64,000 nucleotides of DNA, taken from the NCBI RefSeq assembly GCF_050920415.1, contig NZ_CP169309.1. One strand, written 5' to 3'. Positions 5,254-62,416 of the stretch are shown piece after piece. The notes beneath the pieces are model-generated. The model had not been told where the DNA came from. It did no database searches and worked only from the letters and a program-made list of their open reading frames with translations. The first letter of the stretch is position 1. The number at the start of each line of letters is the position of its first letter. A program made the position numbers and the translations under genes. Source of the stretch: Escherichia coli (GTDB lineage: Bacteria > Pseudomonadota > Gammaproteobacteria > Enterobacterales > Enterobacteriaceae).

Positions 5254-5264
5254 GACATTGATTT

Positions 5265-5446
5265 CATTGCCGGATGCGATGCTGGCGCATCTTATCCGGC
5301 CTACAGGTGCCACCTTCCGAAGGTCGGATAAGGCGTTTATGCCGCATCCGACTGTCATTGCCGGATGCGATGTTGACACATCTTATCCAGCCTACAGGTG
5401 CCATCTTTCGTAGGTCGGATAAGGCGTTTATGCCGCATCCGACTGT
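5265..5446. repeat. Two tandem 91-bp units of REP/BIME-type palindromic repeats between ybaL and gsk
   Basis: Unit beginning CATTGCCGGATGCGATG repeats at 5265 and 5356 with a few substitutions; contains GCCGGATGCG...CGCATCCGGC-type palindromes typical of enterobacterial REP elements. Confidence 0.85.
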
Positions 5447-5461
5447 CATCAGTCCGATAAC

Positions 5462-12763: not shown

Positions 12764-14695
12764 TCAAATGGGGCGGATACTTTCTTCATCCAGCTCCGCA
12801 TCGAAGAACCGACGCAGGGTCTGAATATTATTATCCGCAATAATGGACTCGCGCGCCTGCGCAAGTTTTTCTTCGTATATCGCCTGACGCCATTCCAGCG
12901 GCGTACGCACCGCGGGATTATCATCTTCAACGATAGTCAGTTCAACCGTTGAACCTTTTAACGTGCTCAACGCTTCAGCCAGTTTTTGCTGTGCGCCGCT
13001 GTTATTCAGATGACGCTGAGAGGAGCGCAAATGCAGACACACCGTGTTGCCGTTCTCCTCTTTCCAGGCATTTAACGCCACCTGTTCGACCAGTTTTGGT
13101 AGCGAAAGTTGACTCACCTGAGCCGCCCACGGGTCGCGCTCAATGGCTTCTGCCGCCAGCTTCGCCGCCAGTTCCGGCGTTTTTTCATGTTCCAGCGCTT
13201 TTTTTAGCGCCTTCGGCGTGGCGACCACTTCTTTTTGCTGCATCACTGGAGTGGTAGCCTTCCAGCGATACGCTTCTTTTTTGGCTGGTGCTTTTTCCAG
13301 CGCCGATGGCACCGGACGCGCCTGAACGCGATCGGTGACCGAAGCCAGTCTTTCCAGCGCAGCGTTATTCACCGGCCGCGCGCGGGTAGCGGCTGCCGGT
13401 TCACTCTTTTTTGCTTTGGTTGCTCCCTGTGCGCGCTGCAGTTGTTGGCGCGCCGCCAGCACCTGGCTGGTGGTTTCTGAGAGCGGTACAGTCGGTGCCT
13501 GCTGCGGAGCTGATTGCGGTTGCGGCGGCACCTGGGTTGGCGTCATTACTGCCGTTGGCGCGACGGGCGCAAAAGACTGGCGTGGCACTTCTGGCTCAGG
13601 CAGCGGCATACGCGGATGAAACGCCAGTGCGCGCAACAGCGTCATCTCAACGCCCATGCGGCGGTCCGGCGCATACGGTAATTCTTTGCGACCAATCAAC
13701 AGCGTTTGATAGTAAAGCTGAATATCCGTCGGCGGTATGGTGCGCGCCAGTTCACGCATCCGCAGCTCGATGGCGGCCATGTCGTTGCCCAGCGCAGCAG
13801 GGGAAAGTTGCACCATTGCAATGCGGTGCAACAGGCCGAGCATTTCTACCAGCAACGCTTCCCACTCAATACCACGAGCGGCGGCTTCATTAATCAGCGA
13901 CATTACACGCTCGCCGTTGGCTTCAACCATCGCTTCAACCAGCGACAGCGCCTGATCGTCGTCAAGCGTACCCAGCATCGCACTGACCGCCTGAGTTGAA
14001 ACCTGGCCGTCACCGCTGGCAATCGCCTGGTCGGTCAGACTTAAGGCATCTCGCAGGCTGCCTTCAGCGGCGCGCGCCAGCAATTGCAGCGCCCGCGGCT
14101 CGTGAGCGATATGTTCTTCGTTGAGGATGTGCTCAAGCTGATGGCGAATTTGCTCGACATCCAGCGCTTTGAGATGAAATTGCAGACAGCGTGACAAAAT
14201 CGTCACCGGCAATTTCTGCGGATCGGTCGTCGCCAGCAGAAACTTGACGTGCTCCGGCGGTTCTTCAAGGGTTTTTAACAGTGCGTTAAAGCTGTGGCGC
14301 GACAGCATATGCACTTCGTCGATCAGATAAACTTTAAAACGACCACGCGCTGGCGCGTACTGGACGTTATCCAGCAGGTCGCGGGTATCTTCGACTTTGG
14401 TACGCGAGGCGGCGTCGATTTCAATCAGATCGACAAAGCGCCCCTGCTCAATTTCACGACAGTTATCGCACACGCCGCACGGCGTCGCGGTAATGCCGGT
14501 TTCGCAGTTTAGCCCCTTCGCCAGCAGTCGGGCGATAGAGGTTTTTCCGACGCCACGGGTGCCGGAAAAAAGATAAGCATGATGAATACGCCCTAACGAC
14601 AAGCCGTTCGCCAGTGCGGTCAGCACATGTTCCTGGCCGACGACGTCAGCAAAGGTTTGTGGGCGCCATTTTCGGGCTAAGACCTGATAACTCAT
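12764..14695 (-). CDS. dnaX: DNA polymerase III subunits tau/gamma (643 aa tau)
   Basis: AAA+ Walker A (GTRGVGKTS) and Zn-binding cysteines; internal A-AAA-AAG frameshift site. Confidence 0.95.
   Translation of the reverse strand: MSYQVLARKWRPQTFADVVGQEHVLTALANGLSLGRIHHAYLFSGTRGVGKTSIARLLAKGLNCETGITATPCGVCDNCREIEQGRFVDLIEIDAASRTKVEDTRDLLDNVQYAPARGRFKVYLIDEVHMLSRHSFNALLKTLEEPPEHVKFLLATTDPQKLPVTILSRCLQFHLKALDVEQIRHQLEHILNEEHIAHEPRALQLLARAAEGSLRDALSLTDQAIASGDGQVSTQAVSAMLGTLDDDQALSLVEAMVEANGERVMSLINEAAARGIEWEALLVEMLGLLHRIAMVQLSPAALGNDMAAIELRMRELARTIPPTDIQLYYQTLLIGRKELPYAPDRRMGVEMTLLRALAFHPRMPLPEPEVPRQSFAPVAPTAVMTPTQVPPQPQSAPQQAPTVPLSETTSQVLAARQQLQRAQGATKAKKSEPAAATRARPVNNAALERLASVTDRVQARPVPSALEKAPAKKEAYRWKATTPVMQQKEVVATPKALKKALEHEKTPELAAKLAAEAIERDPWAAQVSQLSLPKLVEQVALNAWKEENGNTVCLHLRSSQRHLNNSGAQQKLAEALSTLKGSTVELTIVEDDNPAVRTPLEWRQAIYEEKLAQARESIIADNNIQTLRRFFDAELDEESIRPI
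13406..13412 (-). other. Programmed -1 ribosomal frameshift heptamer A-AAA-AAG in dnaX (codons 428-430); the -1 frame reads GAG then UGA, producing gamma
   Basis: Heptamer located in frame by counting codons from the dnaX start; GC-rich hairpin immediately 3' at about 13372-13400. Confidence 0.85.
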
Positions 14696-28007: not shown

Positions 28008-28164
28008 GTTAGGGTTACATACCAGGCGTAAAGCTCTGCGCCTGGTCAAATGACAACGTTCGTTTCCACCCATCTCTTCATGAAATCCCGGCTCTACCTC
28101 CTTATCTCCTGCCAGCCTTTTTCCACAATCAGATATACTTTCCCTACACTGTGTTAATAAGGAT

Positions 28165-30226: not shown

Positions 30227-30340
30227 GGGTGGGGGCCCTGCCAGCTACATCCCGGCACACGCGTCATCTGCCTTGGCTGCTTCCTTCCGGACCTGACCTG
30301 GTAAACAGAGTAGCGTTGCGGGAGAACCAACAGAGCCCCC
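30227..30340 (-). ncRNA. ffs: 4.5S RNA, the RNA component of the signal recognition particle (114 nt)
   Basis: Reverse complement reads GGGGGCUCUGUUGGUUCUCCCGCAACGC...GGCAGGGCCCCCACCC, matching the E. coli 4.5S RNA as recalled from memory, with the conserved GGAA tetraloop region. Confidence 0.93.
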
Positions 30341-60029: not shown

Positions 60030-60040
60030 TGTCTGAGAAC

Positions 60041-60067
60041 AGAGATACGGCTAATAACCGTATCTCT
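60041..60067. promoter_or_regulatory. Operator-like palindrome 1 (AGAGATACGG-CTAATAA-CCGTATCTCT) abutting the -35 of the toxin-antitoxin promoter
   Basis: Perfect 10-bp arms with a 7-bp spacer; shares the ATACGG/CCGTAT core with palindrome 2. Confidence 0.6.
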
Positions 60068-60095
60068 TGACAGAGTGAGTATATGAACATAAATT
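60067..60095 (+). promoter_or_regulatory. Putative sigma70 promoter of the toxin-antitoxin operon: -35 TTGACA (60067-60072), 17-bp spacer, -10 TAAATT (60090-60095)
   Basis: Consensus -35 hexamer and optimal spacing read directly; about 75 bp upstream of the antitoxin ATG. Confidence 0.6.
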
Positions 60096-60099
60096 AATC

Positions 60100-60118
60100 A
60101 TACGGTTGATAGCCGTAT
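60100..60118. promoter_or_regulatory. Operator-like palindrome 2 (ATACGG-TTGATAG-CCGTAT) just downstream of the -10, over the predicted transcription start
   Basis: 6-bp arms with a 7-bp spacer, same half-site as palindrome 1. Confidence 0.6.
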
Positions 60119-60171
60119 TATGCATGAGATCGACTCCCTACGATTTCATTCAGTTAATCAAAGAGGTCATA

Positions 60172-60483
60172 ATGCCTGGAAAAACAGTCGCTCTACCCGA
60201 TATCGATAAAACGCTGAAAAATGCGCGGGTTGAACTCAAAACCAGTCCCGACGCCAAAAACAAACTTCGTGAAGCTGCGCAAGCCGTTGGGGTAGATTTA
60301 AGCGCTTTTATTTTGAGCGCAGCTATGGAACGCGCCGAAAGTGTGCTTGATAACCAACGTCGCCGTGAGCTTTCGAATCAAAGCTGGGAACTGATGAACC
60401 AACTCATCGCTGAACCTGCTCAACCGACGCTCGCCCTCAAGGCGTTAATGAAAAGGAAAAACAGCGATGGTCGACAAGCATGA
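60172..60483 (+). CDS. DUF1778-family ribbon-helix-helix antitoxin (TacA/AtaR/ItaR/KacA-like), 103 aa
   Basis: AAGAGG ribosome-binding site 6 nt upstream of the ATG; sequence fits the family pattern (VELKTSPDAKNKLREAAQAVGVDLSAFILSAAMERAESVLDNQRRRELSNQSWELM); overlaps the toxin start by 17 nt. The track ORF at 60106 is an upstream extension. Confidence 0.8.
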   Translation: MPGKTVALPDIDKTLKNARVELKTSPDAKNKLREAAQAVGVDLSAFILSAAMERAESVLDNQRRRELSNQSWELMNQLIAEPAQPTLALKALMKRKNSDGRQA

Positions 60484-61009
60484 AGAGATTACTCTGCCCA
60501 TAGTCCTCTCCTGTAATTATCAGTCTGATATTACTTATCCTGGGCAAAAACAGTTTGATTGCGGTAACCCTGTTATCGATAAATTTGTACGCGCATCGCT
60601 AAAGAAAAGTGTGCGTAATAGCGACTGTGCTGCTAAAGCACTTATTGACAGACAAAGTGGTGAACTGATTGGCATCTGTACTTTTACGGCATATTCGCTG
60701 GAAAAACAACGCGTTTCTGGCGTCCTTCAGGGTTCACAACCTTCAGAGATTGGTGTTGTCAGATTAGTCATGTTAGGGGTAGCGCGGAAATATCAAAAGC
60801 GGGGCTTTGGTCAGGACCTACTATGTGATTTTTTTGAACATGTAAAAATAATTCACCGGGCATTACCAATTAAAGGGGTTTATCTTGATGCTGACCCTGC
60901 CGCCATTAACTTTTATACTCGTCTCGGCTTTGTTCAGCTTTCAGCGAGGCCCAATGTTTTCGGTGCTGTACCGATGTTTTTAGCGATTCAGCATATTCTC
61001 GCGGCTTAG
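60467..61009 (+). CDS. GNAT-family acetyltransferase toxin (TacT/AtaT/ItaT/KacT-like), 180 aa; predicted aminoacyl-tRNA acetyltransferase
   Basis: N-terminal FDCG motif typical of these toxins, acetyl-CoA motif A (QKRGFGQ), C-terminal YxxLGF; ATG overlaps the antitoxin 3' end. Confidence 0.8.
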   Translation: MVDKHEEITLPIVLSCNYQSDITYPGQKQFDCGNPVIDKFVRASLKKSVRNSDCAAKALIDRQSGELIGICTFTAYSLEKQRVSGVLQGSQPSEIGVVRLVMLGVARKYQKRGFGQDLLCDFFEHVKIIHRALPIKGVYLDADPAAINFYTRLGFVQLSARPNVFGAVPMFLAIQHILAA

Positions 61010-61253
61010 ATTTTTATCGCCTCCGGCCATGGCAAGTTTTGCCTCAGCCGGAGACTGAACAGCGTTACCACTTTTGTTCAATTGCCCCCGCTTTCATCAG
61101 GTCCACATCCTTGCCTTTAATGGTTGCCGTTGCGGCAACGATCGTGGTCCTTATAGCTGCACAAGATTTTCGTTCAAATTCCGGTTTATAAAGAATAAGC
61201 AACGAATTACTGGTAAATGAATCAAGCCGGTAATCTGTAAAGTTAATATCCAG

Positions 61254-62000
61254 TCAGTTTAAGCCGAAAGGTGCAAAGCCGACCGTTTGAATAGTTTCCT
61301 TACCTGACGGACTCTTGATGTTGTACGTAACACGAAGATTGGCCACTTCGCCTAATTTATTGGTTTTGGCAAAGAGGCTATCCATGCAGGAAAAACCTTT
61401 ATCTAAAAAATTATCCCGCATTCCAGAACGGGTAATCGTGATCACCGGTAACGTATCGTCAACCGTTTTTCTGTCAATCATATCTTTTCGACAGGCGGCC
61501 ATAAAGTCTTCCGGACCAGCATAAATGTGAACACCCTTATCAAGATATTCTTTCGCTTTACTACAATCCACCTCGACATACTGACCATTGGCGTACATCA
61601 TGCCCAACCTGGACCATGCTAAATTCACACCGCGTTGCGTAGCCTGATTAAATAACGCATACGCTTTGGCATAATCCACCCGCACCTGTTCACCTTCGTA
61701 GTAGATATCCCCCAGCGCTAACGGAGCTTCTTCATCACCTTGTTTAGCGGCTAACTCGAACCATTTAATGGCTTCCGGAACGTTGGGTTTGGTATCGTAG
61801 CGGGGCTGATAATATTCCCAGCCTAACAGGCTTTGCGCGTCGACATCCCCCGACTCAGCCATTTTATGCAGTGTCCTTATCACATCGGGGGCAGGCTTTT
61901 CACTGTATATGCTGTCATACAATTCATGCGCTTTCTCGCTTGCCAGTGAACCTTGTGAGGCAATTAATAAAATAGCCAATAAACTCTTTTTATTTAACAT
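61254..62000 (-). CDS. Secreted Sel1-repeat (TPR-like) protein with an unassigned C-terminal domain of about 85 aa (248 aa)
   Basis: N-terminal signal peptide (MLNKKSLLAILLIASQGSLA|SE), about three Sel1-like repeats (e.g. LGDIYYEGEQVRVDYAKAYALFNQATQRG, LGMMYANGQYVEVDCSKAKEYLDKG); the C-terminal 85 aa has no motif I recognise. Confidence 0.75.
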   Translation of the reverse strand: MLNKKSLLAILLIASQGSLASEKAHELYDSIYSEKPAPDVIRTLHKMAESGDVDAQSLLGWEYYQPRYDTKPNVPEAIKWFELAAKQGDEEAPLALGDIYYEGEQVRVDYAKAYALFNQATQRGVNLAWSRLGMMYANGQYVEVDCSKAKEYLDKGVHIYAGPEDFMAACRKDMIDRKTVDDTLPVITITRSGMRDNFLDKGFSCMDSLFAKTNKLGEVANLRVTYNIKSPSGKETIQTVGFAPFGLN

Positions 62001-62416
62001 AAATAACCTTTATGCATCCATCACTGTATTTTTCAATATACCTAACCACCAAACATCCACTTCATGAATAAATACACAGCCATAACAACCTCAGGTAATA
62101 AGCAAACATTTAAGCTGAAGCAGAATAACCAGCACCGCCAACACCTCTATTTATTGCGATAAAATAACACCATCCTTTAATAAAAAATCACACGCTCATC
62201 AACAAATCCGAAAATAATATCATTCGTGGCAGGATAAAATCAGGCGAGCTTTTCATTTGTTATATTTAACGCGCAAAGTATTAATGGCAAGAATACGAGA
62301 GAAGCGCATGCCTGACGTAAAAATCACGCTCTTATGTAATATTTACTCATTAACACTCTGTTTACCCAACATGCGCTCCGCACTACACTATGTGGGCAAT
62401 TTTTTAAGAGGTGGTA

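Follow-up and report, generated by a model that had tools for sequence, protein, structure and literature searches.

An intact programmed −1 frameshift cassette in a rare dnaX allele of Escherichia coli

In Escherichia coli K-12, −1 frameshifting within dnaX to yield the gamma subunit has been established experimentally (reviewed in PMC5009743; its three signals were dissected in PMC5389563). One gene thereby supplies two clamp-loader subunits of DNA polymerase III, the long tau and the short gamma. The signals are 1) a slippery heptamer, A_AAA_AAG, read by tRNA-Lys; 2) an upstream SD-like element pairing with 16S rRNA; and 3) a downstream hairpin that impedes EF-G-driven translocation (PMC5009743, PMC5389563). 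Approximately 50% of the K-12 ribosomes move into the −1 frame and end translation one codon on, and mutation of the SD-like element, the hairpin or the heptamer in a purified system lowered the efficiency to approximately 50%, 20% and 2%, respectively (PMC5009743, PMC5389563). In this study, a stretch of 64,000 nt of E. coli DNA (contig NZ_CP169309.1; hereafter the window) was analysed. With a probability of approximately 0.97, it contains the canonical programmed −1 ribosomal frameshift cassette of E. coli dnaX in fully intact form. The site is already known and belongs to textbook biology; the present case is real but ordinary.

The gene carrying the site is dnaX, encoding DNA polymerase III subunit gamma/tau. 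Its product matched NCBIfam equivalog NF005942 as a full-length DnaX protein, with a score of 980 bits (cut-off 613). Pfam matches (PF13177, PF22608, PF12169, PF12168, and PF12170) covered the clamp-loader ATPase, the lid and domain III, followed by tau domains IV and V, of which domain IV binds DnaB and domain V binds alpha. The gene lies in the canonical neighbourhood apt-dnaX-ybaB-recR-htpG, as annotated in the identical record NZ_CP169399.1, and the order apt-dnaX-ybaB-recR is also that of K-12. Full-length equivalog, AAA+ domains I-III plus IV and V, and gene context all agree on this assignment. The features of the window are collected in Table 1.

Table 1. Features of the dnaX locus and of the remainder of the window
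Feature	Position	Strand	Basis or remark
dnaX CDS, 0 frame (tau, 643 aa, 71.0 kDa)	12764..14695	-	ORF list, NCBIfam, Pfam
tau_4 (tau domain IV)	DnaX residues 417-498		Pfam
tau_5 (tau domain V)	DnaX residues 500-640		Pfam
Gamma-encoding region (431 aa, 47.5 kDa)	13401..14695	-	Codons 1-430 in 0 frame, −1 slip at 13406, GAG, UGA
SD-like stimulator AGGGAG	13428..13423	-	10 nt 5′ of heptamer, read from sequence
Slippery heptamer A_AAA_AAG	13412..13406	-	CDS nt 1284-1290, phase A, AAA, AAG
−1 frame codons GAG (Glu) and UGA (stop), closing gamma	GAG 13406..13404, UGA 13403..13401	-	Same as K-12
3′ stimulatory stem-loop, GC-rich, 11 bp	13400..13371	-	Begins 5 nt after heptamer
Rfam RF00382, DnaX ribosomal frameshifting element	13431..13367	-	94.6 bits, model positions 1-65 of 65
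naRNA4	5322-5392	+	Rfam
4.5S SRP RNA ffs	30236-30332	-	Rfam
sRNA sraA	47984-48079	+	Rfam
DUF1778 protein	60172-60483	+	Mapped from nearest record's annotation
GNAT acetyltransferase, overlaps DUF1778 gene	60467-61009	+	Mapped from nearest record's annotation
TPR-protein pseudogene, internal stop	61065-62000	-	Mapped from nearest record's annotation

At the site, the coding strand of dnaX reads ...CAG GGA GCA ACC AAA GCA AAA AAG AGU GAA CCG GCA GCC GCU ACC CGC GCG CGG CCG GUG... The heptamer opens with the A that ends codon 428 (GCA) and continues through codons 429 (AAA) and 430 (AAG), and it has the form X_XXY_YYZ in the dnaX 0 frame. The first-pass annotation had placed it at codons 428-430, with GAG and UGA read next in the −1 frame and a GC-rich hairpin following. 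All three were found as described, and its coordinates also stood, their end at 13372 coinciding with the final G in the hairpin's 3′ arm. It had left the minus strand unstated and had missed AGGGAG, which lies outside the interval it gave.

The stop follows directly after the shift in the −1 frame, making the shifted product a truncated gamma. An in-silico −1 slip gave a protein ending in ...QGATKAKKE*, and K-12 gamma (YP_009518751.1) ends alike. The alignment to E. coli dnaX proposed earlier as a check was run against K-12 and displayed an unsubstituted heptamer and a −1 stop in place. Upstream, at the expected distance of approximately 10 nt, AGGGAG was predicted to form a duplex of −7.4 kcal/mol with the 16S rRNA 3′ end, equal to that in K-12; the anti-SD sequence entered in this prediction was assumed from established knowledge and not taken from the window. 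The whole cassette matched RF00382 (gathering score 35; E = 2.2e-19), and PGAP places its frameshifting element feature at the same site in NZ_CP169399.1. This match and the identity of the cassette to that of K-12 support the earlier assignment to the known tau/gamma mechanism, by which gamma would be produced from this gene.

The stem-loop lies 5-6 nt 3′ of the heptamer, with conserved pairing, and its structure is the consensus structure of RF00382. The lower stem consists of 6 bp, from A13400-U13371 to C13395-G13376, and is followed by a bulged A13394; the upper stem consists of 5 bp, broken by an unpaired C13380, and is closed by a 5-nt loop, UACCC. Two bases of the 3′ arm, G13377 and C13380, are unpaired. 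The minimum free energy was −18.0 to −19.1 kcal/mol (z approximately −2.1), with 8 of 200 shuffles equally stable, so that the hairpin is only moderately unusual in stability for its base composition. The fold of the 101-nt context could not be distinguished from shuffles (z = −0.91) and is uninformative because the region is GC-rich. A long-range helix pairing the two flanks of the cassette in that 101-nt fold was set aside, since a ribosome at the site would have unwound it; its upstream arm is not conserved in Pantoea-type sequences.

The bare heptamer AAAAAAG occurred 23 times in the window, compared with 15.1 ± 4.0 in shuffles, and 3 copies lie within dnaX itself. As the heptamer alone is not significant, the case for the site depends on its features taken together. 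When all 23 copies were scored, only the one at 13412 combined all four, lying in frame within a long ORF of 653 open codons, with a −1 stop one codon on, AGGGAG at exactly 10 nt upstream and a hairpin of approximately −20 kcal/mol downstream; the SD-like motif at that spacing accompanied this one copy of the 23. A search of the window for tRNA-Lys genes, made in view of the single-isoacceptor requirement, detected none.

To extend the comparison beyond E. coli, one genome per species was scanned for AGGGAG-N10-AAAAAAGAGTGA, and at least 120 loci were obtained. Among the 120 matches listed, 77 were identified by tblastn as Enterobacterales dnaX, from Citrobacter, Enterobacter, Kosakonia, Pantoea, Erwinia, Serratia, Mixta, Buttiauxella, and other genera. 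The other 43 were not dnaX by tblastn context and were dropped; they were mostly Collinsella sigma-70 gene starts, with a few scattered chance matches. Because the species set was chosen by this fixed pattern, it tests conservation of the hairpin only, the heptamer being invariant by construction. Among the matches listed, 62 of the 63 unique enterobacterial variants had a hairpin (−18 to −30 kcal/mol) beginning at an unchanged distance from the heptamer, and upper stem and loop varied among them.

When 60 distinct enterobacterial sequences were aligned, 87-91% of cells paired, compared with 25-54% with slid partners, and the shuffle control overstates the significance since the sequences are related. 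The closing pair of the hairpin was A-U in 40 sequences, G-C in 18 and unpaired in 2, and the switch between the two pairs joins a synonymous GAA/GAG change to a Val/Ala replacement. Further compensatory replacements of G-C by A-U were observed in the lower stem in Mixta and in the upper stem in an Enterobacter. A single upper-stem structure did not fit all species and two registers were needed, an E. coli type (approximately 25 sequences) and a GCGC/GCGC type (approximately 35). In these sequences, the hairpin is maintained through compensatory changes, and the cassette of the divergent window allele is intact and constrained as in other Enterobacterales.

One enterobacterial sequence departs from this structure. 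In dnaX of Candidatus Pantoea persica (locus L057 2968-3033, minus strand), AGGGAG, the heptamer and GAG UGA are kept and the canonical hairpin has lost its 3′ arm; among the matches listed, it is the only one of the 63 unique variants lacking a hairpin at the standard position.

The Collinsella loci (L039 9769-9796, minus strand, and approximately 35 others) carry the same 28-nt pattern, AGGGAG-N10-AAAAAAGAGTGA, in another setting. There, AGGGAG is a real initiation SD, followed 5 nt on by the GTG of a sigma-70 (RpoD-like) gene, codons 2-4 (CCA AAA AAG) supply an A_AAA_AAG in phase, and the −1 frame reads GAG UGA. No downstream hairpin was found in this pattern (−7.4 kcal/mol). The layout matches that of minimal constructs of dnaX studied in vitro, and its recurrence is probably a coincidence.

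This coincidence, and the abundance of AAAAAAG in the window and in dnaX, are what would speak for a functionless chance motif in the present locus; cleavage of tau by proteolysis, the route to gamma in Caulobacter crescentus (PMC5009743), would be another way to the same product. Both are scarcely credible here in the face of the Rfam match (E = 2e-19), the hairpin covariation across Enterobacterales and the direct experiments on the identical K-12 sequence (PMC5009743, PMC5389563), and the near-total invariance over 5423 E. coli genomes effectively refutes them.

This invariance is seen in the 58-nt core, from AGGGAG through the hairpin, which 5372 of 5423 complete E. coli genomes carried with 100% identity, the whole-gene identity to the window dnaX being 95-99% in all but one. 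Compared with K-12 MG1655, dnaX of the window differed at 63 nucleotides (96.7% identity) and 8 amino acids, and none of the nucleotide differences fell in CDS nt 1267-1406, a 140-nt stretch that holds the whole cassette and for which 4.6 were expected (P approximately 0.01). It is the second-longest K-12-identical run in the gene. From AGGGAG through the hairpin, spacers included, the two sequences are equal base for base; in the 65-nt RF00382 element only the first two bases differ, UG being changed to CA (V422A), 2-3 nt 5′ of AGGGAG and outside the predicted anti-SD duplex.

The allele itself is rare. Of 5424 complete E. coli genomes, only 1 had a dnaX at least 99% identical to it, with the next best at 98.6%; dnaX of NZ_CP169399.1 is 100% identical to that of the window.

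With so unusual an allele, differing from K-12 at 8 residues and carrying the UG to CA change 2-3 nt from the SD-like element, the cassette could be present and yet work at an altered efficiency, owing to V422A or other allele differences, and so shift the tau:gamma ratio. This is very unlikely, as neither the three stimulators nor the two spacers differ from those of K-12, the predicted anti-SD duplex is unchanged and the bases 5′ of AGGGAG are freely variable in other Enterobacterales. The related idea that V422A and the 7 other substitutions give a tau:gamma ratio measurably unlike that of K-12, making the allele a natural variant tuning the clamp loader, is only slightly less doubtful. The intact, K-12-like cassette remains the preferred reading.

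Two other E. coli strains have changes at or beside the cassette. In strain VTB96935v (NZ_CP178662.1, locus L128 101-161), AAG is inserted directly after the heptamer (A_AAA_AAG_AAG_AGU_GAA), lengthening the spacer between heptamer and hairpin by 3 nt, and the shifted product would end in KKEE; the insertion might lower gamma synthesis. In E. coli O157:H7 Z1833 (NZ_CP062705.1, locus L127 1501-1571), dnaX is 1872 nt long, with a 60-nt in-frame deletion that starts immediately 3′ of the 3′ arm of the hairpin, between two CCGGTG repeats, and leaves the cassette intact.

As every element and spacer is identical to K-12, the same behaviour would be expected of the window cassette, with tau and gamma of the masses given in Table 1. 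A ribosome at A_AAA_AAG would hold two tRNA-Lys, one on AAA in the P site and one on AAG in the A site, while AGGGAG, 10 nt upstream, would pair with the 16S rRNA 3′ end and, 5 nt downstream, the GC-rich hairpin would stand at the mRNA entrance channel and hinder translocation. Approximately half of the ribosomes would then slip back by one base, with both tRNA-Lys pairing anew on AAA AAA, and would give gamma after reading GAG and terminating at UGA. The remaining ribosomes would stay in frame to give the 643-aa tau, which adds domains IV and V. Slippage in this strain, its efficiency of approximately 50% and the tau:gamma ratio are extrapolated from the published E. coli experiments on the identical K-12 cassette.

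Slippage could instead occur during transcription, RNA polymerase slipping on the run of A residues, which is the documented route to gamma for dnaX of Thermus thermophilus (PMC5009743), and the site does have a run of six A. Efficient transcriptional slippage in bacteria involves runs of approximately 9 A or T (PMC5009743), and polymerase slippage needs neither a conserved SD-like element at 10 nt nor a covarying hairpin at 5 nt. Furthermore, mutating either of these reduces frameshifting in purified translation systems (PMC5389563). A transcriptional origin is thus highly improbable, and ribosomal frameshifting is retained as the source of the predicted gamma.

The predicted gamma comprises domains I-III and 14 residues from the start of the Pfam domain IV match, and it ends in a Glu. 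With the shift at codon 430, nearly all of domain IV and the whole of domain V are lost, as expected of gamma. The first-pass annotation had remarked that an ORF caller reports one product, and this was the case, since the ORF listing of the window gave the 643-aa dnaX ORF alone and no gamma. For the identical record NZ_CP169399.1, PGAP gives a single 'gamma/tau' CDS with a 'DnaX frameshifting element' feature; the curated K-12 RefSeq record has both tau and a gamma CDS (431 aa) written as a two-piece join. The value of the case is in annotation completeness only, in that a plain ORF caller or the PGAP CDS gives one product where the cell would make two. With two products predicted from one dnaX, the 431-aa gamma belongs in proteome lists for the strain. 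Understanding of dnaX recoding is unchanged.

As a whole, the window was 99.996% identical to E. coli MFDS1022581 (NZ_CP169399.1). An IS2 insertion between ylaC and pdeB in that strain (1336 bp including a 5-bp target duplication) is absent in the window at 28071-28075, indicating that the window comes from a very close relative with an empty site. Identity to K-12 was 93.4-97.5% by segment. Approximately 2.3 kb in the cyoE-yajR interval (60031-62337) is not in K-12, and the layout of the DUF1778 and GNAT genes there resembles a type II toxin-antitoxin pair. Positions 1-246 had no K-12 alignment; K-12 has ybaK downstream of ushA, and the nearest record has a different hypothetical protein. The naRNA4 match sits in two overlapping copies of approximately 95 nt that are 92.6% alike (5264-5449).

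Among known systems, the closest is the K-12 dnaX −1 element (RF00382), with which the window shares AGGGAG, the 10-nt spacer, A_AAA_AAG, GAG UGA, the stem-loop, the position at codons 428-430 and a predicted 431-aa gamma; it differs by UG to CA (V422A) 5′ of the C that precedes AGGGAG and, in the rest of the gene, by 61 further nucleotides and 7 further residues. In Thermus thermophilus and Caulobacter crescentus, too, one dnaX gene yields both a long tau and a short gamma (PMC5009743). In T. thermophilus, however, an A9 run is slipped by RNA polymerase, whereas in the window the run is A6 and is accompanied by ribosomal stimulators, and in C. crescentus gamma arises through ClpXP-type processing. 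Transposases of the IS3 family (IS2, IS911) also use an A_AAA_AAG-type heptamer, accompanied by a 3′ structure and frequently by a 5′ SD-like stimulator (PMC5009743), and an IS2 of this type with an annotated programmed frameshift is carried by the nearest genome, NZ_CP169399.1. There the shift fuses two ORFs into a longer transposase at low to moderate efficiency, whereas the dnaX shift truncates the product one codon later at approximately 50%.
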